The translations under genes and the position numbers were made by a program. The notes below the pieces were generated by a model that had not been told where the DNA came from, searched no databases, and saw nothing but the letters and a program-made list of their open reading frames with translations. Shown piece by piece: positions 1,255 to 16,230 of a DNA stretch of 64,000 nucleotides. Origin of the DNA: Thermoanaerobaculia bacterium (GTDB taxonomy: Bacteria > Acidobacteriota > Thermoanaerobaculia > Multivoradales > Multivoraceae); contig OY762911.1 in the NCBI GenBank assembly GCA_963666565.1, positions 4,384,011 to 4,448,010 of the forward strand. The letters are read 5' to 3'. Within the stretch, counting starts at the first letter, position 1. Each line of letters begins with the position of its first letter.

Positions 1255-1610
1255 CCGAGATCGTCTTCGCGGGTCACAGAAGACGGGGTGGACGGTGGGT
1301 ACCCAGCCAGTGCGCTCAGGCACGGCATCCACAACGAAGGCGACTCCGTCGAAGATCTCCGCAGGAACGTCAAGGAGGCCGTCGATTGCTCCTTCGATGA
1401 CATCATGCCGCAGCCCAAGCTGATCCGTTTGCACTCCGTTTGGGCCGAGGTGCTCATGGCGCGAAAGCTGCCCCGCGCCTTTGGCGGCGCAGCGCTGCAA
1501 GCGGCGTTCCGGCGGCTGGACTGCGCATTCGCGGTAGCTGGGACGACCCTGCCGACAGGCACCAAGGCGCACTCACCGTTCCGGCCCGCGGGACACAGTA
1601 CCGACCATGA
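1251..1610 (+). pseudogene. degraded HicB-like antitoxin / HicA-like toxin pair
   Basis: GTG 1251 gives VTEIVFA (frame 3). It continues only after a 1-nt slip at GGG 1271-1273, as VTEDGVDGGYPASALRHGIHNEGDSVEDLRRNVKEAVDCSFDD..PKLIRLHSVWAEVL (frame 1), the pattern of small HicB-type antitoxins. This runs without a stop into MARKLPRAFGG..RRLDCAF (HicA-like N-terminus). The continuation GSWDDPADRHQGALTVPARG is in another frame and stops at TGA 1608-1610. Confidence 0.4.
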
Positions 1611-3320
1611 CCAACCTGCTAACAGTCCCTGACAAGGCCGGACGCGCCATCGTCGAAGACGGGGCCATGCTCGCCTGTCCACTGCTGGCCACCGACAGCT
1701 TCATACGGTCCTGCGCCCATCGGGGCCTGGCGATTGACCGCCACCGCCTCCTTCGTCTGGAACGGCTAGGTTTCTTCGCTCCCGTGTTCCGAGTGAGGAC
1801 CCCTCGGAAGGACGCCGCCCTCTTCGATATCCCACCAAGGAAGGGCAACAACTGGTTCACCAAGAGATGGGCGTACGATACGACTGCGGTACCTCGGCGC
1901 CATGACGTGCCGTCAGACACCGATCGGACCTGCGAAGGCTACTACTCCGTCTTTCACGTCGACTACCTCCACCTCGTGTTGGCCGAACTAAGCCCGCAGA
2001 TCCAGCTCGACGCGCACCTTGACCGGAAACCAGGCGAGCCGACCGACTGGCAGAAGGCGGGCGACCGCTGGATGCAACACGCCGAAAACAGCGCCGCAAG
2101 CCTGCGCGATCATCAGTACCGCCGTGCAGTCGCCCTGCTCTGCCAGCACGTATCGAACCGGTACTTCCCTCAAACTCAGACCGACATGCGCACTCTGCAG
2201 ATTCGCCGAGTCTGTTGCTCCGACGCTTGGATCGCGGTCGATGGCCGTGACTGGGACTGGCATCGGGAAGTGCGGAGTTGGGATCCGAAGAGGATCCAGA
2301 ACCTCTACGGCCTTACTCCGCAGAAGCTGCGCCACGCATACAGGGGTCCAGTTGCGATCCAATAGAGCATTGGTATCAACTCATTCAGTTCATCTCCGTC
2401 CATGAGCGCGGGAAGCTCAAGGGTGCCGCTCGCCGCGCGGCTACCGTCCGCGAAGGCGCCCAAATGCTGCGCCTCCTGTACACCGATCTATACGGGAAGG
2501 ACCTCCCGCACCCCAACGAGGTTTCCAGGACCATCATCACTCCCTTACCCGAGGTAGAAGTCCGGAAGGACACGCGCCGGCATCTGGAATTCGTCGCCAA
2601 CCGTTTTGGAGTGAATCCCCAACCTCGACTCTGCCTCCTCGTCGAAGGTGCGAGCGAGCAAGCTGCCGTGACACGCATATTCGAGGCGTGCTACGGCGCA
2701 CATCCCGGCCGATACGGCATCGAGATCATCCCGTTGGGCGGCGTGAGCGTCGCCACCGGAAACAGGAAGGACGACCGCTTCAGCGCCGTCATCCGTCTAG
2801 TCGACTATCTGCACCATCACCAGACCTTTGCGCTCCTCATTCTTGACAACGAGGGCTATGCCATGCGAGGAAACTGGAGAAGGCGCTGCGGGATAGAAGG
2901 TCGATTCACGGCGACCGGCGATACGTGACCCGGCGCGACTACATCCGACTCTGGAAAGAGTCCTTCGAGTTCGACAACTTCTCCTGCACGGAGATCGCCG
3001 CCGCGCTCACGAAGCTGGCGTCGGGCACTGCGACGTTCGACGTAAGGGACGTTGCCGGTGCGCGGAGAGCGAGCCATCCTGGATCGGCGCTCAAGGCCTT
3101 GTACCTGAGGAAGGCCAACGACGAACTGGACAAGGTCCGCTTGGCCGAGGCGCTCGTCGACATCATGATGTCACCGCGATCCCGTCGAAAAACCGAGAAC
3201 CGCCCCATCGTCAAGGTCCTGGATCGAGTCCAACGCCTCGCGGCCCGAAACCACCTGCCGACGACGCAGCGCGACCGGGACGCCAACCAGGTGTCCGCGT
3301 TTCTCGACAGCACGCGCTGA
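1607..3320 (+). pseudogene. frameshifted gene for a ~570-aa protein with a Toprim/OLD-like (DUF4435-like) segment
   Basis: ORFs 1607-2365 (frame 2), 2278-2928 (frame 1) and 2925-3320 (frame 3) read as one protein if 1 nt is restored at two places. The first is GGGG 2343-2346 (..KLRHAYRG|SSCDPIEHWYQ..). The second is near 2859-2863 (..LILDNEGYA|ARKLEKALRDRRSIHGDRRYVTRRDYIRLWKE..). The middle part CLLVEGASEQAAVTRIF..GIEIIPLGG..ALLILDNEG looks like a Toprim acidic motif pair. Confidence 0.4.
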
Positions 3321-3605
3321 CCGCAATCCGCTACCGTGCGGGTCTCGCCCGACGGCCTTCGCTCCCTGTCTCGGCAGCAGACCGCCGCGATGTCCGTCGT
3401 GCTGATCTCGTTAGCTCGCACCGTGGTTCACGCGTGGCGCAGATCCCGCCAGTCGCGTTCCCGCCATGAAACTGCCGCGGGCCGCAAGGGGAGGTGCGCC
3501 GCCGGCGACACGATCAACCGGCAACACAGCGACTCCGGTCTGACTGGCGGGCAGCGGAGCCAACGGCATACCTGACGGAGATGAGCGGGATGGTCTTGAC
3601 GCGGG

Positions 3606-3933
3606 TCATTCGAACAAGTCCGCGTGAGTGCCGGCCCCGGGCGAAGTAGACCGAACCGCTAGGGCCGTCCGTGTCGTCGATACGGTAGATCAGCAGGAAG
3701 TCGCCACCGATGTGGCACTCCCGGTAGCGTGCCAACGAGCCCTTGAGCGCGTGGTCCCTGCGTTCGGGAGGGAGCGGAGCGTCACGGGCGATCAGTAGGA
3801 GCATCACCCCTTTCAGCCGCCGCATATCGTAGCGGCCGGAGCGGGAGAGCCGCCGCCAGTCCCTCAGGAACTGTCGCGCGAAGTCGACGCGGCGCGGCAG
3901 TCTGGCCCGCTTACTGGCCGTTGGCTTCTTCAA
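3606..3933 (-). pseudogene. YafQ-family type II toxin (mRNA interferase), frameshifted near the 3' end
   Basis: A TTG start at 3933 overlaps the end of the upstream antitoxin gene. The sequence is RRVDFARQFLRDWRRLSRSGRYDMRRLKGVMLLLIARDAPLPPERRDHALKGSLARYRECHIGGDFLLIYRI. Removing one C from CCCC 3635-3638 restores the family-typical end YFARAGTHADLFE-stop (TGA at 3606-3608). As sequenced, the frame runs on to 3514. Confidence 0.6.
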
Positions 3934-4192
3934 GCTCCGCAAACGCCTCGTCGGCGCTGGCGAACCGCGCGCTGCGGCTCTGCACCATCTCGTCCACATT
4001 TGCCATGGCGCGGCGAGTCTCCGCGTTCGGCACCTTGAGCTCGAGCGGGAAGGCCTGATCGACGGCGATGCGGTGAAACAGCAACCTCACGGCCTCCGAA
4101 GCCGTCAGCCCCATTGCCGTGAGCGCCGCCGTCGCCTTCTGCTTCATCTCGGTGTCCATGCGGACGTGCAGCATCGAACTCTGTGTCGTCAT
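3911..4192 (-). CDS. DinJ/RelB-family type II antitoxin
   Basis: ATG at 4192 is preceded by GGGAGG with a 5-nt spacer. MTTQSSMLHVRMDTEMKQKATAALTAMGLTASEAVRLLFHRIAVDQAFPLELKVPN matches the DinJ ribbon-helix-helix pattern. The gene lies directly upstream of and overlaps the YafQ-like gene. Confidence 0.7.
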   Translation of the reverse strand: MTTQSSMLHVRMDTEMKQKATAALTAMGLTASEAVRLLFHRIAVDQAFPLELKVPNAETRRAMANVDEMVQSRSARFASADEAFAELEEANGQ

Positions 4193-4365
4193 GCGAGCCT
4201 CCCGTCTCTCATTTGCGAGACTACTTTCGCACGCTGTCATGCCGCAGTCAAGCCGATGCCCAGTGCAGAAGAATCGGGGATCATCGCCGGGAATGCGCCT
4301 CGCGGGTCAATTGCGGCAACTCCGCTACACTCCGCCCATCCCACCGTCATCCCGGAGGCCCCAGC

Positions 4366-5442
4366 ATGAGACGCCGAGTCCCCGCAGCCCTGACTGCCGT
4401 CCTCGCCCTGTTGCTCGCCGCGACGGCCCTGACCGCCCAAGGCGAGATCAAGCGCGCCGCCAACGGCAAGCCGGACCTGACCGGCACCTACGACGCCGGC
4501 ACCCTGACGCCGCTCCAGCGGCCCGAGAAGTACGGCGACAACCTTTTCCTGAGCCCCGAGGACGCGGCGAAGATCGAGGCGGACGCGGCCCAGTACGCGG
4601 CCGACCGACATCGGGTTTCCGATCCGAACCGCAAGCCGCCGCCGGTGGGCGGCGACGGGACGACGGGCGGCGCCGGCAACGTCGGCGGCTACAACCGGTT
4701 TTGGGTCGAAACCGGCACCGAGGCCTTCGCGGTCGACGGCAAGTTCCGCACGTCTATCCTCTTCGACCCTCCGAACGGCCGCATGCCGGAGATGACCGAG
4801 GCCGGCAAGGCACGATCCGCCGAGCGCCGCCGGCTGCGCCGGCCGAACGACGGTTCCGCCTGGTGGCTCGACATCGAGGGCCACGGCCCGTACGACGGCC
4901 CCGAGACGCTGCCGGTGACCGAGCGCTGCATCGTCGGCTTCACCGGCGCCACGCCGACGTTCCCGAGTCTCTACAACAACTTCAAGCGCGTGGTCCAGAC
5001 CGAGGATCACGTCATGATCCTGATCGAGATGGTCCACGACGCCCGGATCGTGCGCCTGAACGCCGAGCATCCGAGTCCCGAGGAACGGAAGTGGCTCGGC
5101 CACTCCATCGGCTGGTGGGAAGGCGACTCCCTCGTCATCGACTCGCGGAACTTCCACCCGAAGGCCGTCCTGCGCGGCGCCACCCAGGAATCGCACGTGA
5201 CGGAGCGCCTCACGCTGCAGCCGAACGGCGACATCCTCTACCGGTTCACGATCGAGGATCCGGCGACCTGGGACGTCCCCTGGTCCGGCGAGTACATCTG
5301 GAAGCGGAGCGACGTGGACGTCTACGAGTACGCCTGCCACGAGGGTAACTACTCGATGGGCGGCACCCTGCGCGGCGCGCGGGTGCTCGAAGCCGACGCG
5401 ATGGCCGCCAAGGCCGCGAGCACCGGCGCCGGAAGCGACTAG
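4366..5442 (+). CDS. secreted protein of unknown function (YEYACHEGNY-motif family), paralog 1 of 4
   Basis: GGAGG 4354-4358 precedes ATG 4366. Signal peptide MRRRVPAALTAVLALLLAATALTAQG. Conserved blocks are PDLTGTYD, TERCIVGFTGATPTFPSLYNNFKRVVQTEDHVMILIEMVHDARIVRL, WLGHSIGWWEGDSLVIDS and YEYACHEGNY. The ORF-track start at 4183 is upstream extension only. Confidence 0.75.
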   Translation: MRRRVPAALTAVLALLLAATALTAQGEIKRAANGKPDLTGTYDAGTLTPLQRPEKYGDNLFLSPEDAAKIEADAAQYAADRHRVSDPNRKPPPVGGDGTTGGAGNVGGYNRFWVETGTEAFAVDGKFRTSILFDPPNGRMPEMTEAGKARSAERRRLRRPNDGSAWWLDIEGHGPYDGPETLPVTERCIVGFTGATPTFPSLYNNFKRVVQTEDHVMILIEMVHDARIVRLNAEHPSPEERKWLGHSIGWWEGDSLVIDSRNFHPKAVLRGATQESHVTERLTLQPNGDILYRFTIEDPATWDVPWSGEYIWKRSDVDVYEYACHEGNYSMGGTLRGARVLEADAMAAKAASTGAGSD

Positions 5443-5725: not shown

Positions 5726-6188
5726 CGACGATGTCTGTGATCCGCGGCCGCCCGAAACAACCTGTGCCCGGTAACTCTACTGCCACAGGAGGCCTCAACC
5801 GCCCCCGCCTGTCGCACGCCCACACACCTCCTCTAACGCCCCACGATGGACGCCCGGCCACCCCGGGAGACGCCCTAGTCTGCCGAGCACTTCCAGAGCA
5901 ACCACCCGGAACCTCGCTTCTCGCACCGCGAAGCGCCACAGCGGGCGCAACACTGGCCACCTGTCCAGCCCCACCGCTCGTCTGGACCGGCCCTCCTTAG
6001 CCCGCGCTAGCGAGCCCTCCTAGTCCGTCGCAAAGCTGCAGCGGGGCACTAGAAGAGGTGCCCCGAGTACCTGCTCCGCCTACTCGCCCGTCCGTCCCCG
6101 ACCCTCGTCGCCGCAAAGCGTGCATGACCGTGTATAGTCGCGTACAAGCGTGCAGCTCGACCGACCTAGGACTACTTGGAGGCGCGAA

Positions 6189-6377
6189 GTGTCGACCGGC
6201 CAACGACTCAATACGACGATCGATCCCCAACTCGCGGAGCGCCTCGACCGTGAGACAAGGGGAAGAAATCCGAGACTGCCGAAGCGCTACGTCGTAGAGC
6301 TCGCCCTGAAGAGGCTCTTCGACGACTTGGACAGAGGTCAGCTCCGACTGGACCTAACCGGGGGCGTCCATGGCTGA
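6189..6377 (+). CDS. ribbon-helix-helix (CopG-like) regulator, controller-type gene upstream of the methyltransferase
   Basis: GGAGG 6178-6182 precedes GTG 6189. The sequence is VSTGQRLNTTIDPQLAERLDRETRGRNPRLPKRYVVELALKRLFDDL, a beta-strand followed by two helices as in RHH proteins. The 3' end overlaps the MTase start by 8 nt. Confidence 0.5.
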   Translation: MSTGQRLNTTIDPQLAERLDRETRGRNPRLPKRYVVELALKRLFDDLDRGQLRLDLTGGVHG

Positions 6378-7872
6378 GATGCAGAGCCAGAAGAGACCAG
6401 TCATCTCGTTGTTCAGTGGCGCGATGGGGCTGGACCTGGGTCTCGAATCGGCCGGTCTTGACATCGCTGTCGCATTGGAGAGTAGCTCCTTCCCTGTCGC
6501 CACGATCAAACGGAACAGGCCTTTGCTACCCTTGATCGCCAGCCGCATCGAGACCGTTTCGAGCGAAGAGATCCTGACCGCAGCAGGGTTGGCACCAGGG
6601 GAAGCCTTCGCTGTCGTCGGTGGCCCGTCGTGCCAAGTGTTCAGCACCGCCGGCCGTAGACGGTCTTTCGCTGATCCGCGCAGCACGATGTTCGAGCACT
6701 TCGTCCGCGTGGTGCGTGACGCTCGCCCCGAGTTCCTGGTCATGGAAAACGTGCGCGGTTTGCTTTCTGCTGCAGTCCGCCATCGACCTCTGAAGCAACG
6801 GGGTCCCGGCTATCCCCGGCTGACCGAGGACGAGCTCTTGGGCTCCGCGTTCCGCGTGGTCGCAAGGACGCTTCGCGCTCTTGGCTACTACTGCGTCTTC
6901 GACGTACTCAACGCTGCTGACTACGGTGTGCCTCAGACTCGTCTGCGACTCGTGATCATTGGCAGCCGCGACGGAAGGAGCCTGCGAATGCCGAAACCGA
7001 CGCACAGCGTAGAGGGAACACAAGGCTTGGCGACGTGGAGGACGCTTGGTGAAGCTCTGGAGAACCTGAACGAGGACGATCCAGACTACTATCCATTCTG
7101 CCCTTCCAAGGAACGCTACATGAGGCTCATTCCTGAGGGTGGCAACTGGCGTCAGCTACCAGAAGAACTGAAGCGAGAAGCCCTAGGAAGCGCCTTCTCC
7201 TCATGGGGAGGGCGCTCTGGCTTCTTTCGCCGCCTGTCCCGCGAACGCCCATGCCCAGCACTCACAACGCGGCCCGACAGTAAGGCGACCGTCTTATGCC
7301 ACCCAACCGAACTGCGACCGCTCACCGTAGGCGAGTATGCACGGGTACAACAGTTTCCGGAAGACTGGATCTTCGAAGGGTCTGTCCGGAAGAAGTACGA
7401 GCAGCTCGGCAACGCAGTACCTGTCGGCTTAGGCGCAGCGATCGGAGCGGCATTGGTGGACGCCTCTCGTAGCCAGGTCCGCGAAAGCCGACTCGGTCGT
7501 TTCGAGTCGTTCAACTTGGACCTCCTTGGCAAGCTCTCCAGGCGGCCCAAAACCATCCTGAACCCGCCTCGGATGCGGTCGGACGAGGACCAGAGCGCAA
7601 TCGCGGACTGGCACGGAGATAGCCAGAGGACACGAGAAGACGCCCACGACTACGTCCCGCCTGAACTCGCCAAGCAATTCGACACTCTCACCACTCAGAA
7701 GCCGCGGCGCTCCAGACGAAGTGCTCGCGTCGCTCCCCACTCTTCGCGCCGAACGGAGGCGGGCAGAGCGCAGCGCCGATCTCCTGAAGGAACGCTAGGG
7801 ATCTCCGTCGCCGAACAACGGGGACAATCCACTCAACGAGCTGATCATCATCCTCTCGCAGATGACGACTAG
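6370..7872 (+). CDS. DNA (cytosine-5) methyltransferase
   Basis: Motif I SLFSGAMGLDLG; motif IV GGPSCQVFS (non-canonical Ser before the catalytic Cys); motif VI ENVRGL; motif VIII QTRLRLVIIG; motif IX RPLTVGEYARVQQFPEDW; motif X GNAVPV. The last ~100 codons are low complexity, so the true 3' end is uncertain. Confidence 0.85.
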   Translation: MAEMQSQKRPVISLFSGAMGLDLGLESAGLDIAVALESSSFPVATIKRNRPLLPLIASRIETVSSEEILTAAGLAPGEAFAVVGGPSCQVFSTAGRRRSFADPRSTMFEHFVRVVRDARPEFLVMENVRGLLSAAVRHRPLKQRGPGYPRLTEDELLGSAFRVVARTLRALGYYCVFDVLNAADYGVPQTRLRLVIIGSRDGRSLRMPKPTHSVEGTQGLATWRTLGEALENLNEDDPDYYPFCPSKERYMRLIPEGGNWRQLPEELKREALGSAFSSWGGRSGFFRRLSRERPCPALTTRPDSKATVLCHPTELRPLTVGEYARVQQFPEDWIFEGSVRKKYEQLGNAVPVGLGAAIGAALVDASRSQVRESRLGRFESFNLDLLGKLSRRPKTILNPPRMRSDEDQSAIADWHGDSQRTREDAHDYVPPELAKQFDTLTTQKPRRSRRSARVAPHSSRRTEAGRAQRRSPEGTLGISVAEQRGQSTQRADHHPLADDD

Positions 7873-8116
7873 CCCGAGTTACCTGCGCGTCTATACTCGC
7901 CTCGAGGCCACGATTCCGCACTGACAGGGCCTCGCGGGCACCTCGGTCACGAACCTCCGGTCGTCCATGGCTGACGCCGGCCTGGCCGCGCTCAATGCCC
8001 TTCGACAAAAGCAAATCGCCGAGCCGCTAGTCGATGACTTGGGCCGAGTGTCTCTAGCCAACCCTCGCCCATTGGGACGATGACACCACGCTGCGCTACC
8101 TAACTGATTGAGACCC

Positions 8117-9892
8117 TCATCCAGTCTGTGCCGTTCCCAAGAGGGTAGCCGCTTGGCGTACATCCGCGAGGAACGACTCTCGTGTGATCGGCACCTCGAC
8201 CTGATCCCCAAGCAAGCTCTGTGCGGCCTGTTCCTTCCGGGTCAACAGTTCGTACTCGGCAACCTCAAGCGTCCCGTCGCACAGTATTACCAAGTACTCT
8301 ACCTCCCGTTCCTGCCCCCGGCGGTGGATCCGGTCGAGACTCTGGAGATAATGCGCCGCTTGGTTTGAGAGAGACTCATAGATGGCAACGCGGGCCCGAT
8401 GCAGCGTCAGGCCAGCGCCGGCGGCGGCTGGGTTACCGACGAAGATCATCGTGTCGTCGTCCTCCTGAAAGCGCCGCACCGCGTCTCGCCGTGCCTCGAT
8501 GCCCGTTACCGAACCGTCGTACCTAACGGCGCCATAGCGCGCGAAGCGTCGGCACATCGCGGCGACAGACGCCCGATAGAACGACCATATCACTACCTTC
8601 TCACGTTCGCGGCCGACGAGCTGTCCGAGGAGTTCGTCCAACACCGACAGCTTCGCGGGCGTCTCACAGTAGGTGTCCACCACGCTTCGTGGATTCGAGC
8701 AGATTTGAAGGAGGCTCGCGCGACGCGCCAAGAAACTCGCTCGTCCCGTGACGAAACCCGTGTCGTCTACCGCCTGAACGTCCGCAATCAAGTCATTCAG
8801 TGTCCTGCGATACAGATGAGCCTGTTCCGTCGCCATCGGCACGAGGATGCGTTGGAACCGCTTGATCGGCAGGTCAGGGAGCACGTCTGACTTCAGGTGT
8901 CGGAGAAAGAGCCCACGCTCCTTGATCGCGGATCGCACAACAGGGGCCGCCTGCGCTCGGTCCGCAGGCACGTCAACGCCCTCGAAGCAAAAGCCGAAGT
9001 CGACGAAGCTAAACTGTTGGACGAGGTCGGACGGAGAGTTCGGCGCCGGAGTACCACAGAGCACGTAGGCACGGCCGGCCCATTCCCGCAGGCGCCGGAG
9101 AGTCCGTGTGCGCTTGGCGTCGAGCGACTTGATGAAGAACGACTCGTCGATTGCGAGCACGATCCGCCCAGGTCGTGTGCGCAAGAAGGACCGGAGCTCC
9201 GCTTCCATACTCACCGCCGCCTCGAAGTTGGTCACGAAGATGTCGGAGCCCTCCGCTAGCAACCGACGCCTCTCCCGCTCCGAGCCGGTCAATACTGACG
9301 TACGATAGAGGCCCCTTCGGAATCGGGTCAGGTCTCTGGGCCATTCGCCAATCATGCTCTTCGGCGCAACAATGATCGCCGCGTCGGCTTGGTCCCGCTC
9401 CACGAGCAGGTCGAAGGCAAAGATGAACGTCACCGTCTTGCCGGCTCCCTGCTCGTCAAAGACGCAAAGGCCGGGACTCTGCGGTATAGCCATCGCGGCA
9501 ACGTTCACAATCTGGTGGTCGTCCAAGACTCCATGACCGTCACTGTCCGGGATCATCCGCGCGGCCAGAGCGGCCCCGCCCCGCCGGATCCGATGCAATG
9601 CCTTGAACACGTCAGCATGGACAGACGCGACATGCCGGCGATTCTCGACGAAGCGCCGGGACTCGGAACTCCAGCACAACTCAATCTCCGATCCTAACTC
9701 GGCGAGGCGCCCAACGAGTGGTGCGGGAACGCTGACACCTTCGGCGGAACGCCTGATGCCGACTCCGTCAGTGCCAAGTCCCACCCTAAGCGCCCTCAAG
9801 AGAGCATTCCCCTCACCACGTCCCGGCACCAGGAAGAGGGCATCGAGAGTCTCCGCGCTCCTGACATCGACTCGCAGACGGCTGGGCCGCAT
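8117..9892 (-). CDS. SNF2-family helicase/translocase
   Basis: Motif I DEQGAGKT; motif II DESFFIKS; motif III LCGTPAPNSPSDL; motif V GAGLTLHRA; motif VI QSLDRIHRRGQ. ATG at 9892-9890 overlaps the TGA (9894-9892) of the upstream gene as TGATG, suggesting translational coupling. The ORF-track start at 10033 is inside the upstream gene. Confidence 0.85.
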   Translation of the reverse strand: MRPSRLRVDVRSAETLDALFLVPGRGEGNALLRALRVGLGTDGVGIRRSAEGVSVPAPLVGRLAELGSEIELCWSSESRRFVENRRHVASVHADVFKALHRIRRGGAALAARMIPDSDGHGVLDDHQIVNVAAMAIPQSPGLCVFDEQGAGKTVTFIFAFDLLVERDQADAAIIVAPKSMIGEWPRDLTRFRRGLYRTSVLTGSERERRRLLAEGSDIFVTNFEAAVSMEAELRSFLRTRPGRIVLAIDESFFIKSLDAKRTRTLRRLREWAGRAYVLCGTPAPNSPSDLVQQFSFVDFGFCFEGVDVPADRAQAAPVVRSAIKERGLFLRHLKSDVLPDLPIKRFQRILVPMATEQAHLYRRTLNDLIADVQAVDDTGFVTGRASFLARRASLLQICSNPRSVVDTYCETPAKLSVLDELLGQLVGREREKVVIWSFYRASVAAMCRRFARYGAVRYDGSVTGIEARRDAVRRFQEDDDTMIFVGNPAAAGAGLTLHRARVAIYESLSNQAAHYLQSLDRIHRRGQEREVEYLVILCDGTLEVAEYELLTRKEQAAQSLLGDQVEVPITRESFLADVRQAATLLGTAQTG

Positions 9893-11472
9893 CAACGCGT
9901 CTCTGGGGTATCCGCCGTGCTCAGATAGGTCTCGACATGCCTCAAGACTCTCCTTAGCCGTGTCAGGTTCTCTTCGGTGACCGAACCAGACTCGCGCCCG
10001 TCGAACGCCTTGACCGGCAGGCCGAGGAACCACTCAGTGAAGACGCGGATCCTCGTGTTCGCACCAGTCTGCCGCCGCTCCGCGCGAGCTGCTCGCGCCA
10101 AGCTGATCGCGTTGTCGACTTCTTCCTGGCCCGCGTCCACGTCTGACTCGTCACGGGCCTTGCGGAGGAGTCCGACAGCGTCCTCGTTCTCGTATACATA
10201 CTTGAGATCCCGAATCCTCTGCCAACTCTGGAACTTGCCGTCATAGAGCAGATCGAAGACAAGATGCTTGAAGCTGTCTTCTTGGTTCAGCGACCAGTTC
10301 ACTCCACCTGCACTCTTGCCCTTGTTCAACTCGTCGAAGTACTGAAACTTGTCGGACGCCCGGTGCTTCACGGCGAACTTGTCTTTCGCGCAGTCGATGA
10401 CCTGATAGTCTTCGAACTCTCGCGCGAGTCCTACCATGTTGATGTACCGAGACACCTCATTGGTCGACAGTGCGAACTTCCTTGCGATGTCACGCCTAAT
10501 CTCCCTCTGGCGTACGACCGTCGGGTTCGCCCTAGGCTCGAGCGCCAGCAAGGCCTCCCACTGCTCATGGACCTTCTGGGCCTTTACGTACTCAGGCCAG
10601 TCCTGCTTGTAGTCGGGTTCGAAGTTCAGCGACACGATCACTGCCTCGCGATCCCGTGCGGTCGCGTGTTCCGTAAGTTGCCAGACCTTCAACCACTCCG
10701 CCCGTCGCTTCTCCTCGACGGTGAACTCACCTTTGCCGTCCTCCAGAATATGGTAACAGGCCGTAACCCTACGGTTCCCGTCCAGGAGCGTACCGTCCAA
10801 GTCGATGATTGGGGCTTTGCGAACACCGTTGACCGCTATACTCTTCGCCAGAGAACGGATGGCGAACTGATCTGCTTCGTCGATCCCTGGCAAGGGCATT
10901 GTTCCCTGCATGATCGCGACCAGCTCCTCGGCGTCCGGTCCGCGCCCGTACTTCTGGTGGAACTGATTCAGATGAATGTGGAGCCGCTCGTTCTCGTCCC
11001 AGAGTTGGATGTCCCGTGCGCGAACGAACCCTTCCTGCACAGCGACAGGACGTTCGTGGAACACGGGTTTGGGTCGCACCGGAGCAGGGTCGATCCCATC
11101 GAATGACCGCAAGTGCAGGCGCTTCGTGCCTCTTGACCCAGATCCAGGCGATGCCTTCGGTGTGGCGGGCCGGGTGAGCGCGCTAGTCGGTCGCCCGGCC
11201 CCTGTCAACCGCGCTCGCGCCTGCTCGACCTTCGCGACGAAGGCTGCAACGTCGCCATCAAGCAGCCTTGCCGTCTCGGCGTCGCCTCGTCTCACGGCGC
11301 CCTCGCGAACGACCTCCACCACCTTGGTGAGGAGGGCGCGCGCCTCATCGACCGAGAGCGGGTTCGCCAACCCCTCAAGCAGAGTGTCCTTGATCGACGG
11401 GCCAACGTCGGCGGACATGGAGTCTGCCGCATGTAGTAGCTCCGTGAGTGCCTTCTTGACTTCCTCGTTCAT
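9892..11472 (-). CDS. ParB/Srx-fold (ParB-like nuclease domain) protein, otherwise uncharacterised
   Basis: 526-aa ORF. The central segment VRARDIQLWDENERL..FAIRSLAKSIAVNGVRKAPIIDLDGTLLDGNRRVTACYHIL fits the ParB N-terminal domain pattern (G-x-x-x-P-I.. D-G-x-x-R). The remaining ~300 aa have no motif I recognise. It starts 11 nt downstream of the sigma-like gene. Confidence 0.55.
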   Translation of the reverse strand: MNEEVKKALTELLHAADSMSADVGPSIKDTLLEGLANPLSVDEARALLTKVVEVVREGAVRRGDAETARLLDGDVAAFVAKVEQARARLTGAGRPTSALTRPATPKASPGSGSRGTKRLHLRSFDGIDPAPVRPKPVFHERPVAVQEGFVRARDIQLWDENERLHIHLNQFHQKYGRGPDAEELVAIMQGTMPLPGIDEADQFAIRSLAKSIAVNGVRKAPIIDLDGTLLDGNRRVTACYHILEDGKGEFTVEEKRRAEWLKVWQLTEHATARDREAVIVSLNFEPDYKQDWPEYVKAQKVHEQWEALLALEPRANPTVVRQREIRRDIARKFALSTNEVSRYINMVGLAREFEDYQVIDCAKDKFAVKHRASDKFQYFDELNKGKSAGGVNWSLNQEDSFKHLVFDLLYDGKFQSWQRIRDLKYVYENEDAVGLLRKARDESDVDAGQEEVDNAISLARAARAERRQTGANTRIRVFTEWFLGLPVKAFDGRESGSVTEENLTRLRRVLRHVETYLSTADTPETR

Positions 11473-11483
11473 CGTTCCACCTC

Positions 11484-12164
11484 CTAGTTCGGGTCTGTGT
11501 CTGTGTCAGACAGCTCCACTAACGCCGCGACACCTTCCTGGTCTGCCAATCGGCGGAGTCGCTTCAAGCCCCGTGAGACTAGAGTCCGAGCAGCGGCAGC
11601 CGAGATGTCGAGCTGTTCAGCGATATCCGCCGCAGGTAAGTCGGGAAGCTCGTTCTCTACTGCATCGATCAGAATCTCCATCACATCGACCACCTGCCCA
11701 TAGCCAATCCTGGGAAGAAGCTCCCGGGCCATCCGTATCGCCTCCTTTCGGCGCTCCTCCCTCTTGCGACGGCGCTCTTCCGCCTCGCGTCGTGTTTCCG
11801 CTGAGTCCGGCGCTCCCGGAAGAGTCACAACATCGGCATCCTGTCGCCGAGAGTAGTCAGACCGCCACCTGTCGTCTGCGTGGTTCCTAGCCACCTTCCA
11901 CAGCCATGCACCGAGGCTACGAATCTGCCGACCCTCGAACGCTGCGGCGCAAGCAGCATCCACAGCTTGTGCTATACACTCATCTACCTCGTGTGCTGGA
12001 AGGGTATCGCCCCACTGCTTCTGCAGCCTTCGTGTCAGACCGTCGAGGTAGCGACTCACGGCCAGAGCTTCGAGCATCGTAACCGGATCGCCCCGATTGA
12101 CCGCCTCTTCCGCTTGCTCCAGCAGCAGCGCCGCGTCGTCGACTCTGGCCTTACTTGCACTCAC
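11484..12164 (-). CDS. ECF-type sigma-70-like protein
   Basis: Region-2-like IRSLGAWLWKVARNHADDRWRS. Region-4 HTH-like LPAADIAEQLDISAAAARTLVSRGLKRLRRL. The two are separated by a charged linker (AETRREAEERRRKREERRKEA). This is the first gene of the minus-strand operon. Confidence 0.55.
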   Translation of the reverse strand: MSASKARVDDAALLLEQAEEAVNRGDPVTMLEALAVSRYLDGLTRRLQKQWGDTLPAHEVDECIAQAVDAACAAAFEGRQIRSLGAWLWKVARNHADDRWRSDYSRRQDADVVTLPGAPDSAETRREAEERRRKREERRKEAIRMARELLPRIGYGQVVDVMEILIDAVENELPDLPAADIAEQLDISAAAARTLVSRGLKRLRRLADQEGVAALVELSDTDTDPN

Positions 12165-12334
12165 GCTGCACCCATCGGCACCCGAACATGCCCTGCTCGT
12201 AGTATCGCCATGTCCAATAGTCCCAGTGCGAAACAGGTCTCCTCGGCTGTCCTACCCACCATAGCCAGAGACTCCAGATCCGCAGGGCTTGGCGGGTCTT
12301 CCCGGCACACCGTAAGGCGACGGAGGGAAGAGTG

Positions 12335-13414
12335 ATGGGAATGCGAGTCCCCGCAGCCTTGACCGCCATCCTCGCCCTGCTGCTCGCCGCGCCGGCCCTG
12401 ACCGCCGAAGGCGAGATCAAGCGCGCCGCCAACGGCAAGCCGGACCTGACCGGCACCTACGACGCCGGCACCCTGACGCCGCTCCAGCGGCCCGAGAAGT
12501 ACGGCGAGAACCTCTTCCTGAGCCCGGAGGACGCGGCGAAGATCGAGGCGGACGCGGCCAAGTACGCCGCCGACCGGCACCAAGTCTCCGATCCGAACCG
12601 CAAACCGCCGCCGGTCGGCGGCGACGGGACGACGGGCGGCGCCGGCAACGTCGGCGGCTACAACCGGTTCTGGGTCGAGACCGGGACCGAGGCGTTCGCG
12701 GTCGACGGCAAGTTCCGCACCTCGATCCTCTTCGATCCTCCGAACGGACGCATCCCGGAGATGACGGAGGCCGGCCAAGCCCGGGCCGCCGAGCGCCGCC
12801 GGCTGCGGCGGCCGAACGACGGCTCCGCCTGGTGGCTCGACATCGAGGGCCACGGCCCGTACGACGGCCCGGAGACGCTGCCGGTGACGGAGCGCTGCAT
12901 CGTCGGCTTCACCGGCGCCACGCCGACCTTCCCGAGCCTCTACAACAACTTCAAGCGCGTAGTGCAGACCGAAGACCACGTCATGATCCTGATCGAGATG
13001 GTCCACGACGCCCGCATCGTGCGCCTGAACGCGGAGCATCCGAGCCCCGAGGAGCGCAAGTGGCTGGGCCACTCGATCGGCTGGTGGGAAGGCGACACCC
13101 TCGTCATCGACTCGCGGAACTTCCACCCGAAGGCCGTCCTGCGCGGCGCCACGCAGGAGTCCCACGTCACGGAGCGCCTCACGCTACAGCCGGACGGGAA
13201 CATCCTCTACCGGTTCACGATCGAGGATCCGGCGACCTGGGACGTCCCCTGGTCCGGCGAGTACATCTGGAAGCGGAGCGCCGTGGACGTCTACGAGTAC
13301 GCCTGCCACGAGGGCAACTACTCGATGGGCGGCACGCTCCGCGGCGCGCGTGTGCTCGAAGCCGACGCCATGGCCGCCGAGGCGGCGAGCACCGGCGCCG
13401 GCAGCGGCGACTGA
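12335..13414 (+). CDS. secreted protein of unknown function (YEYACHEGNY-motif family), paralog 2 of 4
   Basis: GGAGGG 12322-12327 precedes ATG 12335 (alternative ATG at 12341). By eye it differs from paralog 1 at only about 15 residues. Confidence 0.75.
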   Translation: MGMRVPAALTAILALLLAAPALTAEGEIKRAANGKPDLTGTYDAGTLTPLQRPEKYGENLFLSPEDAAKIEADAAKYAADRHQVSDPNRKPPPVGGDGTTGGAGNVGGYNRFWVETGTEAFAVDGKFRTSILFDPPNGRIPEMTEAGQARAAERRRLRRPNDGSAWWLDIEGHGPYDGPETLPVTERCIVGFTGATPTFPSLYNNFKRVVQTEDHVMILIEMVHDARIVRLNAEHPSPEERKWLGHSIGWWEGDTLVIDSRNFHPKAVLRGATQESHVTERLTLQPDGNILYRFTIEDPATWDVPWSGEYIWKRSAVDVYEYACHEGNYSMGGTLRGARVLEADAMAAEAASTGAGSGD

Positions 13415-13437
13415 TCGAAACCACGGAGGACAGAGAA

Positions 13438-14502
13438 TTGAGAATCCCCGCGGCCCTGATCGCCATCGTCCCGCTTCTGCTCGCGGCGCCCGGGGCCGGC
13501 GCCCAGGACGACATCAAGCGCATGCCCGACGGCCGGCCCGACCTGCACGGCAACTACGACGCGGCCACGCTGACGCCGCTCCAGCGGCCCGAGGAGTACG
13601 GCGAGAACCTGTTTCTCACCCCGGACGAGGCCGAGAAGATCAAGGTCGACGCGGCCAAGAGCCGGGCCGACCGCCACCAGATCAGCGACCCCGACCGCGA
13701 GCCCCCGCCGGTCGGCGGCGACGGGTCGGGCGGCGGCGCCGGCAACGTCGGCGGCTACAACTACTTCTGGCTCGACTTCGGCACCGAGGCATTCTCGGTG
13801 GACGGCAAGTTCCGCACCTCGATCATCGTCGACCCGCCGAACGGCCGCATGCCGGAGATGACCGAGCCGGCGAAGGCGAGAAGGGCGGCGCGCGACAAGC
13901 TGCGGCGGCCGAACGACGGCTCAGCCTGGTGGCTCGACATCGACGGCCCCGGCCCCTACGACGGCCCCGAGTCGCTGCCGATCACGGAACGCTGCATCGT
14001 CGGCTTCACCGGCGCCACGCCCACGCTCCCGAGCGCCTACAACAACTACAAGCGCGTGGTCCAGACCGAAGACCACGTGATGATCCTGATCGAGATGAAC
14101 CACGACGCCCGCATCGTCCGCCTGAACGACGAGCACCCGAGCCCCGAAGAGCGCAAGTGGCTCGGCGACTCGGTCGGCTGGTGGGAGGGCGACACGCTCG
14201 TCATCGACTCCGTCAACTTCCACCCGAAGGCGTTCCTGCGCGGATCGACCCAGGAGCTGCACGTCACGGAGCGCCTGACCCTCCAGCCGACCGGCGACAT
14301 CCTCTACCGGTTCACGATGGACGACCCGGCCACATGGGAAACGCCCTGGTCCGGCGAGTACATCTGGCGGAACCGCCCGGAACTCGTGTACGAGTACGCC
14401 TGCCACGAGGGGAACTACGCGATGGGCAACACCCTGCGCGGCGCGCGGATTCTGGAGGCCGACGCCGCGGCGGAGGCGGCCAGCACCGGCGGCGGCCACT
14501 AG
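13438..14502 (+). CDS. secreted protein of unknown function (YEYACHEGNY-motif family), paralog 3 of 4
   Basis: GGAGGA 13425-13430 precedes TTG 13438. Signal peptide (M)RIPAALIAIVPLLLAAPGAGAQD. It has the same conserved blocks but is more diverged. The ORF-track entry 12832-14502 is the same frame extended upstream through paralog 2. Confidence 0.7.
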   Translation: MRIPAALIAIVPLLLAAPGAGAQDDIKRMPDGRPDLHGNYDAATLTPLQRPEEYGENLFLTPDEAEKIKVDAAKSRADRHQISDPDREPPPVGGDGSGGGAGNVGGYNYFWLDFGTEAFSVDGKFRTSIIVDPPNGRMPEMTEPAKARRAARDKLRRPNDGSAWWLDIDGPGPYDGPESLPITERCIVGFTGATPTLPSAYNNYKRVVQTEDHVMILIEMNHDARIVRLNDEHPSPEERKWLGDSVGWWEGDTLVIDSVNFHPKAFLRGSTQELHVTERLTLQPTGDILYRFTMDDPATWETPWSGEYIWRNRPELVYEYACHEGNYAMGNTLRGARILEADAAAEAASTGGGH

Positions 14503-14701
14503 CGGCCCCGTCGCGGCCCGCGCGACCGTTGGCCGCACTGCCCTTTCGTTCGCTTGCATCGTCTGCCGGGCGAAGGTAGCTTCCGCGCAGATACCCGCCG
14601 GCAGCGTGCTGTCGGCTCAAGGGCTGCTCTTCGGGGCAGCCCTTGCTGTTTGGGGACTCACGCTACACTCCCGGCATCCCAGTCGAACAGGAGGACGCAG
14701 A

Positions 14702-15772
14702 ATGAGACTCCCAGTCCCCGCCGCCTTGGCCACCATGCTCGCCCTGCTGCTCGCGGCGCCCGCGCTCGCGGCCGAAGGCGAGATCAAGCGGGCCGCCAAC
14801 GGCAAGCCCGACCTGACCGGCACCTACGACGCCGCCACGCTGACGCCGCTGCAGCGGCCGGAGGAGTACGGCGAGAACCTCTACCTGACGCCGGAGGAGG
14901 CCGAGAAGATCGCGACCGACGCGGCGAAGGCCCGCGCCGACCGGCACCAGGTCTCCGACCCGAACCGCGAGGCGCCGCCGGAGGGCGGCGACGGCTCGCC
15001 AGGCGCGGCGGGCAACGTCGGCGGCTACAACAGCTTCTGGCTCGACCGCGGCACGGACACGTTCGCGGTGGACGGCAAATTCCGCACCTCGATCATCGTC
15101 GACCCGCCGAACGGCCGCATGCCGGAGACCACCGAGGCCGCCAAGGCGCGGTTCGCCGAGCGCGCCAAGCTGCGCCGCCCGAACGAGGGCGTCGCGTGGT
15201 GGCTCGAACTCGACGGCCCGGGCCCTTACGACGGCCCCGAGTCGCTGCCGATCAGCGAGCGTTGCATCCTCGGCTTCACCGGCGCCACGCCGACCTTCCC
15301 GAGCGGCTACAACAACTACAAGCGGGTCGTGCAGACCGAGGACCACATCATGATCCTGATCGAGATGGTCCACGACGCCCGGATCGTCCGCCTGAACGAC
15401 GAGCACCCGAGCCCGGAGGAGCGGCGCTGGCTGGGCGACTCGATCGGCTGGTGGGAAGGCGACACCCTCGTCATCGACTCGGTCCACTTCCGGCCCGACG
15501 GGTTCCTGCGCGGCGCGACGAAGGACCTCCACGTCACGGAGCGGCTGACGCTCCAGCCCGACGGCAACATCCTCTACCGGTTCACGATGAACGACCCGGC
15601 CACATGGGAAGCCCCGTGGTCCGGCGAGTACATCTGGAAGCGCGACCAGGAACGCGTCTACGAGTACGCCTGCCACGAGGGCAACTACTCGATGGGCGGC
15701 ACGCTCCGGGGCGCCCGGATCCTCGAAGACGACTGGCGCGCCGGAAAGGCGGCCAGCACCGGCGGCGAGTAA
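14702..15772 (+). CDS. secreted protein of unknown function (YEYACHEGNY-motif family), paralog 4 of 4
   Basis: AGGAGGA 14689-14695 precedes ATG 14702. Signal peptide MRLPVPAALATMLALLLAAPALAAEG. Same conserved blocks. Confidence 0.75.
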   Translation: MRLPVPAALATMLALLLAAPALAAEGEIKRAANGKPDLTGTYDAATLTPLQRPEEYGENLYLTPEEAEKIATDAAKARADRHQVSDPNREAPPEGGDGSPGAAGNVGGYNSFWLDRGTDTFAVDGKFRTSIIVDPPNGRMPETTEAAKARFAERAKLRRPNEGVAWWLELDGPGPYDGPESLPISERCILGFTGATPTFPSGYNNYKRVVQTEDHIMILIEMVHDARIVRLNDEHPSPEERRWLGDSIGWWEGDTLVIDSVHFRPDGFLRGATKDLHVTERLTLQPDGNILYRFTMNDPATWEAPWSGEYIWKRDQERVYEYACHEGNYSMGGTLRGARILEDDWRAGKAASTGGE

Positions 15773-15828: not shown

Positions 15829-16230
15829 CTACGCCAGCAGCCGCTCCAGCGCTGTCGCGGCGGCCAACAAGGCACCCACCACGAGCAGCATGCGCCAGGT
15901 CAGGTCGGCGCGCAGCTTCTCCATGTCGGCGCGAATCTCGCCGCGGAACCGGCCCATCTCGCCGCGCAGTTCAGCACGCAGTTCGCCCATCTCACCGCGC
16001 AACTCGCCCATCTCGGCGCGCAGTTCGCCCATCTCGCCACGCATCTCGGCGCGCAGTTCGCTCATCTCACCGCGCAACTCGGCACGCAGCTCGGCCATCT
16101 CGCCGCGCAGTTCGGCGTGGTCCCGCGCACGCTCGGCGCGCGTCTCGCGGCGCATCGCCTCAAGCCGCACTGCCACGTCCGATTCGGTCATGAAGGAGGT
16201 ACTCACAGTCTCCGGTTCCGTTGCTGTCAT
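15829..16230 (-). CDS. tail-anchored coiled-coil protein with ELRG/ELRA/EMRG micro-repeats
   Basis: GGAGA plus a 6-nt spacer precedes ATG 16230. The sequence is MTATEPETVSTSFMTESDVAVRLEAMRRETRAERARDHAELRGEMAELRAELRGEMSELRAEMRGEMGELRAEMGELRGEMGELRAELRGEMGRFRGEIRADMEKLRADLTWRMLLVVGALLAAATALERLLA. It has a C-terminal hydrophobic anchor. The plus-strand ORF 15890-16453 is its antisense shadow. Confidence 0.55.
   Translation of the reverse strand: MTATEPETVSTSFMTESDVAVRLEAMRRETRAERARDHAELRGEMAELRAELRGEMSELRAEMRGEMGELRAEMGELRGEMGELRAELRGEMGRFRGEIRADMEKLRADLTWRMLLVVGALLAAATALERLLA

Follow-up and report, generated by a model that had tools for sequence, protein, structure and literature searches.

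A sigma-like, ParB-like and SNF2 gene trio linked to C5 cytosine methylation: a candidate restriction–modification-like defence family whose copy in a Thermoanaerobaculia genome has lost its predicted nuclease gene

What is a C5 cytosine DNA methyltransferase (MTase) doing beside genes for a sigma-like protein, a ParB-like protein and an SNF2-family ATPase? The question is raised by a compact cassette in a 64,000-nucleotide stretch of the genome of a Thermoanaerobaculia bacterium (assembly GCA_963666565.1, contig OY762911.1, positions 4,384,011–4,448,010), hereafter the window, which an initial annotation made from the sequence alone had described as a candidate defence or epigenetic module of no named type. 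Here we argue that the cassette represents an uncharacterised, horizontally mobile restriction–modification (R-M)-like defence family, and that the window holds what is probably a restriction-dead, still conserved remnant of it, an answer that we lean towards rather than insist upon.

All five open reading frames (ORFs) of the unit, which had been drawn as beginning at 6150, were found where they had been placed (Table 1). On the plus strand, a small ORF ends within the start of the MTase gene; on the minus strand, convergent with these two, lie the genes for the sigma-like protein, a 526-aa protein and the SNF2 protein. The tight packing reported for them can be read directly in the sequence: a gap of 11 nt with a GGAGG Shine–Dalgarno sequence inside it separates the sigma-like gene from the 526-aa gene, whose stop codon in turn overlaps the SNF2 start codon as TGATG. 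The drop in GC content was likewise borne out by measurement, at 0.585–0.63 across 6–12 kb of the window versus 0.68–0.71 in the flanks. The arrangement is more than chance, as it recurs in about 45 genomes.

The 526-aa protein had been read as having a ParB/Srx fold. No Pfam (including ParBc), NCBIfam or PADLOC model matches it, and a profile of its family found nothing among the sequences of the PDB; because the sequence-family scans gave only a weak PHROG match (‘ParB-like’, 3.8e-5), the fold was reached through an AlphaFold2 (AF2) model, built with 26 homologues (predicted local distance difference test, pLDDT, 71.6), and Foldseek. The 13 best matches in the PDB were all ParB-family proteins, including pNOB8 ParB-N, KorB, Spo0J and PadC (best E 1.3e-3, most with probability 0.9–1.0). 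Three boxes (W158/N161/R163, G227xLLDGNRR235 and N283/F284/K289/W292) are invariant or nearly so in 72 ParB-like sequences drawn from all three gene architectures described below, with DGNRRVTA invariant throughout, and these may form the equivalent of the ParB nucleotide pocket. The ParB/Srx reading thus holds, in that the predicted fold matches ParB, KorB and Spo0J and the GxxRxxA arginine box is conserved; the protein is a divergent member of the superfamily and the founding one of a family that has no model as yet. Its surroundings are not those of a ParABS system: there is no ParA-like gene in the window cassette, none is conserved in the 84 loci examined, and the conserved motif upstream of the operon is not palindromic.

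We used this ParB-like protein (its sequence and alignment) alone to retrieve related loci, taking one genome per species, and defined architectures by ORF calling, clustering and profile hidden Markov model (HMM) searches of the loci. More than 580 relatives occur in a 90%-clustered collection, almost all of them unnamed, and the family is rare, since only 296 clusters were found among 1.84 billion 50%-identity representatives. The 84 loci assembled (77 from genomes, six from IMG/VR viral contigs, and the closest relative of the window cassette, L084) come from at least 12 phyla. About 45 belong to class A, the type of the window, with sigma-like, ParB-like (~520 aa) and SNF2 (~590 aa) genes, often followed by a ~150-aa gene, c4, and with the C5 MTase gene either convergent downstream or upstream; their hosts are Acidobacteriota, Thermodesulfobacteriota, Binatia, Alpha- and Gammaproteobacteria, Cyanobacteria, Planctomycetota, Actinomycetota, Chloroflexota, Bacteroidota, Nitrospirota and Bacillota. 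Wherever a class A locus extends far enough, its sigma-like, ParB-like and SNF2 genes keep one order, with the sigma-like gene always first. Of the 80 loci of any class with adequate context, about 75 (~94%) have a C5 MTase gene no more than 10 kb away, and across class A loci (n = 34) identity to the window proteins co-varies with that of the ParB-like protein for both the MTase (Spearman 0.86) and SNF2 (0.88). The genes on either side of the cassette bear no relation to one another between loci. The co-occurrence of ParB-like, SNF2 and C5 MTase genes that the initial annotation proposed to look for in other genomes is therefore found, and the genes form a jointly conserved unit with a link to C5 methylation.

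This family places the claim that no recognisable nuclease accompanies the genes in a different light: it is correct for the window and fails for the relatives. In 28 class A loci the c4 gene stands directly 3′ of SNF2, and its alignment shows an invariant H...PDV...G(E/D)AK.TE.P, the signature of PD-(D/E)xK enzymes. In the PDB, c4 matches nothing but SdaI, a restriction enzyme, in its catalytic segment, and does so weakly (E 0.15). Among cultured bacteria, Aquibium sp. A9E412 (L009; NZ_JAOAOP010000004.1, 91915–113447) carries sigma-like, ParB-like, SNF2, c4, MTase and RHH-like genes, and Nitrospirillum iridis DSM 22198 has the form without c4. Some loci that lack c4 carry an HNH gene, between SNF2 and the glycosylase gene in L011 and beside the MTase gene in L037 and L038, or an HNH-repeat protein (L026). 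The proposal that the SNF2 and ParB-like domain would themselves act as effector accordingly needs amending: the likely cutter is a separate nuclease and not these two alone, because a PD-(D/E)xK gene in 28 relatives, or an HNH gene, occupies the slot after or near SNF2. In L007 this slot holds a transposase fragment. An apparent SNF2–nuclease fusion in L035 was rejected, since the long open frame behind it is an artefact of high GC content.

How the window came to be without a nuclease can be read from L084, in which the ParB-like protein has 88% amino acid identity to that of the window and the flanks are syntenic at about 90% nucleotide identity. This relative carries sigma-like, ParB-like, SNF2, c4, glycosylase, MTase and small-ORF genes. 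By blastn, window 8123–12249 corresponds to L084 9226–13349 (84.6%) and window 5991–8104 to L084 14075–16195 (82.6%); c4 lies entirely within the 725 bp missing in between, as does the 3′ third of the glycosylase gene; a c4 HMM that detects the gene at L084 13356–13838 (3.8e-47) has no match in the window. The difference is a loss in the window lineage and not a gain in L084, because the glycosylase sequence that remains holds three in-frame stops. The five surviving genes are intact and bear the mark of purifying selection against L084 (dN/dS 0.12–0.18; 0.124 for the ParB-like gene and 0.135 for both SNF2 and MTase). Synonymous divergence (dS) is 0.30 for the small ORF (62 codons), 0.50–0.62 for the other four genes and 0.28–0.34 for flanking genes, and the values of the four, roughly double those of the flanks, suggest different cassette alleles, or allele exchange at a hotspot. 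Because the nuclease gene is gone, the window copy is probably not restriction-proficient, and from its gene content it can probably still methylate and make the sigma-like, ParB-like and SNF2 trio.

The plus-strand genes of the cassette are best understood as a modification arm. The C5 MTase call stands firmly, with scores far above family cut-offs (Pfam DNA_methylase 173.8 bits against 22, 8.2e-51; TIGR00675 dcm 170.6 bits against 100.65, 6.8e-50), M.HaeIII as best PDB match (1.8e-26), and the catalytic motifs FxGxG, PCQ, ENV and QxRxR present in the translation as FSGAMG, GGPSCQ, ENV and QTRLR, followed by GNAVP. Its last ~115 residues overlap, in another frame, the glycosylase remnant, which has 62% identity over 180 aa to the L084 ORF by tblastn and breaks off near residue 180 of 301. 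In its intact L084 form the protein matches EndoIII (1.5e-31), the G–T mismatch glycosylase 1kea (1.1e-13) and ROS1 (9.4e-16). An EndoIII-family glycosylase gene accompanies the MTase gene in ~22 loci, in seven of which (L017, L021, L031–L034, L036) the two are fused into one ORF of 655–735 aa; other loci carry Vsr. In L001–L006 and L084 MTase and glycosylase have an ORF each, in different frames and with an overlap of up to ~300 nt, which could reflect frameshifting or a recent split. Because the MTase is usually accompanied by, or fused to, a T:G repair enzyme, the Vsr or glycosylase partners imply that it methylates resident DNA over the long term.

The small ORF upstream had been annotated as a ribbon–helix–helix (RHH) regulator. 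As a gene it is real, and it is kept upstream of the MTase gene at 52–89% identity in L084, L001, L002, L004–L012, L024 and L078. Its fold is another matter: the 62-aa protein has no Pfam match at E ≤ 0.01, and a search of the PDB with a profile built from 10 homologues (E ≤ 10) yielded no RHH structure. The RHH label, which comes from a strand–helix–helix sequence pattern and from the tandem repeats upstream, is unproven. Of 15 related loci aligned, most have repeated TGYGCA-type hexamers at the equivalent place before the small ORF.

On the minus strand, the SNF2 helicase call needs no revision. Both Pfam domains score above cut-off (SNF2-rel_dom 73.9 bits against 24.9, 1.6e-20; Helicase_C 34.5 bits against 23.5, 2.6e-8), the best PDB matches over residues 120–580 are ISWI, CHD1L, HELLS and SsoRad54, and the helicase motifs GAGKT (Walker A), DESF (Walker B) and QSLDRIHRRGQ (motif VI, QxxxRxxRxGQ) are present. 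The protein annotated as similar to extracytoplasmic function (ECF) sigma factors is less clear-cut. Its sequence scores fall under the family cut-offs (Sigma70_r4_2 24.4 bits against 25.7, 2.3e-5; TIGR02937 29.7 bits against 42.9, 4.2e-7), the Pfam scan gave no Sigma70_r2 match, and the sequence alone found nothing useful in the PDB; its predicted fold (AF2, pLDDT 80.2) matches ECF factors in both domains. The best Foldseek matches of this model are all sigma factors, mostly ECF, with probability of at least 0.9 across sigma2 and sigma4, and include sigL, sigH, sigE, SigW and AlgU; region 2 alone gives a TM-score of 0.67–0.70 against 4lup. No anti-sigma gene was seen with the cassette.

Upstream of the sigma-like gene lies a 23-nt motif, with consensus CTGTTKCGC-N5-GACTAYYGG, that has one exact match in the window and is found at the equivalent relative position, sometimes twice, in 15 related loci. 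It starts with TGTTTCGC, and its second half is not palindromic; the canonical parS half-site, TGTTTCAC, would give seven of eight matches to this start, a resemblance of interest before an operon with a ParB-like gene. Fitted by eye to an ECF, sigma-70 or sigma-54 promoter, the motif showed no good spacing, the 16–17 nt usual for ECF promoters being absent, and it is kept as a putative promoter or operator. No conserved RNA structure emerged in the leader itself, where a single 5-bp stem showed next to no covariation.

How might these parts work together? The biochemical roles that follow, and defence itself, we infer from gene content, conservation, predicted folds, the deletion and the purifying selection. 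In the modification arm, the small RHH-like protein would control the C5 MTase, which would mark host DNA, while the T:G repair enzyme of intact relatives (EndoIII-like or Vsr) would offset deamination of 5-methylcytosine (5mC). The restriction arm would be a single translationally coupled operon of ECF-sigma-like, ParB-like and SNF2 genes, joined in intact relatives by the ~150-aa predicted PD-(D/E)xK nuclease. With its conserved, presumed nucleoside triphosphate (NTP) pocket and helix–turn–helix (HTH)-like domains, the ParB-like protein may bind DNA as an NTP-gated switch, sensor or loader that reads the methylation state, by analogy with SspE, GmrSD and DpdB; SNF2 would then translocate the complex along double-stranded DNA, and c4, or a substituting HNH nuclease, would cut DNA without the mark. 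The sigma-like protein, initially cast as a dedicated regulator, could drive or autoregulate the operon through the motif conserved in front of it, or serve as a structural subunit. A single 725-bp deletion took from the window its nuclease gene together with the final part of the glycosylase gene, whose remnant gained its stops afterwards. Of the modification-dependent self/non-self system proposed initially, this scheme keeps the co-conserved unit linked to C5 methylation and amends the assignment of the effector, and the window copy is left without a nuclease.

Several observations weigh against a restriction system. The c4 protein is predicted to be a nuclease from a motif and the marginal SdaI match, it is absent from 15 of 43 informative class A loci, and it has no detectable homology to c7, the class B protein at the same position. 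That c4 never occurs without an MTase gene (28/0 with c4 versus 11/4 without it; Fisher p = 0.011) is the pattern that would be expected of a toxic nuclease and a protective methylase, but the test ignores phylogenetic non-independence, and the four loci without an MTase gene are all cyanobacterial. In these (L014, L018, L020 and L022, from Iningainema, Calothrix, Scytonema and Nostoc) the trio is intact with no C5 MTase, c4, Vsr or glycosylase gene within 10 kb, and together with the other c4-less loci they may point to a function of the trio that needs neither MTase nor c4. The 121 nearest neighbours, in which DruE, type I, IIG and III R-M parts, DrmC, NERD with UvrD, E1–E2, Eco29kI and integrases stand alongside housekeeping genes, fit a defence role but are a plain listing with no calibrated enrichment test. 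The dN/dS values average over the whole divergence from L084 and say nothing specific on selection since the deletion. Finally, the family is unnamed as judged against Pfam, NCBIfam, PADLOC 2.0.0 and the literature, and a more recent name may exist.

Some of these same facts can be turned towards other explanations. If the sigma-like protein redirected RNA polymerase, the ParB-like protein acted as a KorB-like clamp at a parS-like site, SNF2 worked in the manner of RapA and the MTase laid down a heritable mark, the cassette would be a module of epigenetic or transcriptional control in which the nuclease is optional. A predicted two-domain ECF fold encoded by what is invariably the first gene, the match of the ParB-like model to a transcriptional repressor clamp, the motif conserved upstream of the operon, the cyanobacterial trio with no MTase or nuclease gene nearby, and the constraint on the window trio and MTase despite loss of the nuclease all fit such a role. 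A regulator needs neither a PD-(D/E)xK gene at a fixed position in 28 loci nor an HNH gene in others, however, nor does it account for c4 keeping to loci with an MTase; there is no anti-sigma gene and there are no conserved target genes; and a patchy spread over at least 12 phyla, of the kind left by horizontal transfer, with unrelated flanks and with defence genes and integrases near, also counts against it. We regard control as an unlikely primary function, if one to be taken seriously. The reading of the window copy as a mere relic, its leftovers functionless beyond an orphan Dcm-type methylase and its ORFs intact for want of time, draws on the deleted nuclease gene, the stops in the glycosylase gene and decay elsewhere (truncated SNF2 and MTase genes in L025, a split ParB-like gene and partial c4 in L024, the transposase fragment of L007). 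Yet four large ORFs (226–591 aa) and a small one have stayed intact, with catalytic motifs, over a time in which a glycosylase remnant of ~180 codons has already collected its three stops; dN/dS is low; and cassettes that lack c4 and are otherwise intact recur in several lineages. This we hold to be rather unlikely.

Mobility itself could be the point. ParB-superfamily, DNA methylase and SWI2/SNF2 domains recur as a trio in polyvalent proteins (PMC5512222), of which the cassette might be an unfused counterpart, carried by mobile elements as anti-restriction cargo that protects or establishes incoming DNA. Matches of SNF2 to phrog_62 (8.7e-75) and of the MTase to phrog_116 (3.9e-65), integrases or serine recombinases within 10 kb in about 18 loci, and the six IMG/VR contigs with a relative accord with this. 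What tells against it is that 50,697 phage and 72,556 plasmid records yielded no homologue of the ParB-like protein, a result that also speaks against a partition module of prophages or integrative and conjugative elements, which the initial annotation had named as a refuting case; that phage structural and conjugation genes are not conserved around the cassette; and that the window and L084 cassettes sit in the same chromosomal paralog array. Polyvalent proteins moreover use adenine methylases (PMC5512222), whereas the C5 MTase here, with its Vsr or glycosylase, implies lasting methylation of the resident genome. Cargo of this kind seems to us very unlikely. A bolder version of the defence reading is that the family is a new immune class, in which a ParB-type NTP-gated clamp reads 5mC, a sigma-like subunit ties the complex to RNA polymerase or foreign transcription, a sliding clamp and transcription together, and not mere recognition of a site, license restriction by SNF2 and a small nuclease, and the trio also acts without the nuclease, for example by silencing unmethylated DNA. 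Activity of the last sort would explain the persistence of the trio in the window and in cyanobacteria that lack the nuclease; as a whole we think this version a long shot. We return to an R-M-like family, with a window copy that has probably lost restriction, as the explanation we prefer.

The setting of the cassette in the window (Table 1) partly matches the toxin–antitoxin and R-M debris described earlier, in that a YafQ/RelB pair and a Gabija-like OLD/TOPRIM fragment are among the neighbours. The L084 copy is adjoined by a GajB-like UvrD helicase gene and a HicB antitoxin gene. In the window, the cassette stands between copies 1 and 2, 93–94% identical to each other, of a tandem array of paralogs; the L084 cassette stands between other copies of the same array, and for this reason the array seems to be a recombination or insertion hotspot. 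Just past it, at 15897–16145 in a long ORF, are nine overlapping copies of a coding repeat (CGCCCATCTCGCCGCGCAGTT-like) with 12/21/33-nt periodicity. No convincing terminal direct or inverted repeats were seen at the island borders, and the window contains no tRNA genes that could serve as an integration site.

Table 1. Features of the cassette and its surroundings in the window (positions in nt from the start of the window)
Feature	Position	Strand	Basis or remark
Low-GC cassette, extent common with closest relative L084	5991..12249	.	blastn and GC
Tandem GCGTGCA / CGTGTA / GCGTACA repeats, putative operator-like site	6118..6154	+	Read from sequence
62-aa RHH-like protein, putative MTase-gene controller	6189..6377	+	GTG start, GGAGG Shine–Dalgarno
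C5 cytosine DNA methyltransferase, catalytic motifs intact	6370..7872	+	Pfam DNA_methylase, TIGR00675 dcm
EndoIII/HhH-GPD DNA glycosylase pseudogene remnant	7526..8062	+	tblastn of L084 ORF; missed by the initial annotation
Deletion junction	8105..8122 (18 nt)	.	L084 13350–14074 (725 bp) without counterpart; missed by the initial annotation
SNF2-family ATPase/translocase, 591 aa	8117..9892	-	SNF2-rel_dom and Helicase_C
526-aa ParB/Srx-superfamily protein, helical and HTH-like C-terminal domains	9892..11472	-	AF2 and Foldseek
226-aa ECF-sigma-like protein (sigma2 and sigma4)	11484..12164	-	AF2 and Foldseek
Conserved 23-nt motif CTGTTTCGC-N5-GACTATTGG, putative promoter or operator	12214..12236	-	~50 nt upstream of sigma-like start
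OLD/TOPRIM (GajA-like) fragment	2278-2928		Weak GajA match; short ORFs either side, region 1607-3320
YafQ/RelB toxin–antitoxin pair	3514-4240		Adjoining cassette
Four tandem paralogs	4354-5442, 12323-13414, 13420-14502, 14690-15772		~360-aa secreted-looking protein, no Pfam match

The remaining loci fall into two sister architectures, in which a ParB-like protein of the same family is found with a C5 methylase and with other partners. Class B (~22 loci: L043–L064, L074, L082, L083) has MTase, c6, ParB-like (~375 aa), SNF2 and c7 genes, where c6 is a 280-aa protein without hits and c7 a 405-aa protein with a D...E.K-like C-terminal motif. Class C (~17 loci: L046, L047, L055, L061, L065–L067, L069–L073, L075–L077, L081) has MTase, in some cases Vsr, ParB-like (~365 aa) and c5 genes, c5 being a 385-aa protein with a prephenate-dehydratase-like N-terminal domain. 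Archaeal metagenome-assembled genomes (L044, L046) are among those that hold these architectures, which have no sigma-like gene. By hhalign, comparisons of accessory proteins across architectures (c4 with c7, the sigma-like protein with c6, c5 with the others) all gave probabilities below 2%.

If the family is a working defence, it would be an architecture of the R-M type that newly brings together a ParB-type NTPase, an ECF-sigma-like protein, an SNF2 motor, a minimal PD-(D/E)xK nuclease and a C5 methylase with a repair enzyme of its own, and one that annotation pipelines currently miss entirely because none of Pfam, NCBIfam and PADLOC offers a model for its signature protein. Its full, nuclease-swapped, nuclease-less and methylase-less variants could show what a ParB-like protein does beside DNA-modifying enzymes, a question that applies to DndB and DpdB too.

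Comparison with known systems bears out the view that the gene set is none of DISARM, BREX or Dpd, since PADLOC 2.0.0 shows none of their defining proteins in the cassette. It matches the MTase only generically (MTase_II, DrmMII, DruM) and SNF2 only in the helicase core (ZorD, DpdE, BrxH), and leaves the ParB-like and sigma-like proteins without any match; PglZ with BrxC, ZorA/ZorB and DruE, of BREX, Zorya and Druantia, are not among the cassette proteins. In the literature on BREX-related systems, Dnd, polyvalent proteins and ARMADA, other gene sets are found and the present combination is not described. A classical type II R-M system with a controller was also considered and rejected: the window cassette has no nuclease gene, and the PD-(D/E)xK gene of the relatives belongs to the SNF2 operon and not to that of the MTase.

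DISARM, whose class 2 consists of DrmA, DrmB, DrmC, DrmE and DrmMII, likewise uses a C5 MTase in a methylation-linked, multi-gene defence, and its class 1 adds an SNF2 protein, DrmD. The window MTase scores 1.8e-85 against the DrmMII model, with equal scores for MTase_II and DruM, and SNF2 scores 1.4e-15 against DrmD; however, the DrmA helicase, DrmB (DUF1998) and DrmC (PLD) are not in the cassette, and DISARM has neither a ParB-like nor a sigma-like protein. Type III-E CRISPR–Cas, where the sigma factor RpoE is held by Csx30/Csx31, offers a precedent for an ECF-type sigma inside a defence locus, but the cassette has no CRISPR, Csx30/31 or protease genes, and the sigma-like protein lies far below the cut-off of NCBIfam CAS_III-E_sigma (1.8e-7, 31 bits against 100).

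The ParB-like protein has the closest structural matches in the ParB, KorB and Noc clamps, with which it shares GxxRR and two further boxes and the HTH-like domains that follow the ParB domain. It differs from them in its extra N-terminal helical domain, in matching no Pfam ParBc model, and in being paired with a C5 MTase rather than with ParA and a replicon. A functional analogy can be drawn to enzymes in which a ParB/Srx-fold NTPase domain (DUF262) is coupled to a nuclease and reads DNA modification. SspE, of the Ssp phosphorothioate system, couples a ParB-like sensor domain to a nuclease in this way. The type IV enzymes GmrSD combine a ParB-like domain with a nuclease (PMC5512222; PMC12839542). 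SspE and GmrSD each unite a DGQHR-type motif and a DUF1524/HNH nuclease in one polypeptide, to which Pfam and PADLOC detect no similarity in our protein; the cassette has instead a separate ParB-like protein with DGNRR and ParB/KorB-like HTH domains, and in relatives the predicted nuclease, PD-(D/E)xK or HNH, is encoded by a gene of its own.

Nearer in overall composition is Dpd, in which a DNA-modifying enzyme, an SNF2-type helicase (DpdE) and a ParB-like ATPase, DpdB (PMC12839542), share one island. SNF2 matches the DpdE models at 1.7e-26 in the helicase core, whereas the ParB-like protein matches no PADLOC DpdB model. The modification differs as well, being C5 methylation and not base exchange, with no tRNA-guanine transglycosylase (DpdA) or DpdC gene in the cassette, and the sigma-like and small PD-(D/E)xK genes are not Dpd parts. 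Finally, the division of labour that we propose, a self-marking methylase, a superfamily 2 (SF2)/SNF2 motor and a nuclease cutter, is that of type I and III R-M and of the BREX-related BR systems, which consist of an N6-MTase, an SNF2 helicase and a restriction endonuclease (PMC12839542). In ARMADA and the BREX-related systems the methylases act on adenine and the partners are different. Unlike type I, type III and BR systems, the cassette has a C5 rather than an N6-adenine MTase and no specificity subunit, keeps motor and nuclease as separate small genes, and adds to them a ParB-like and a sigma-like protein, two convergent arms and a small putative controller for the MTase.

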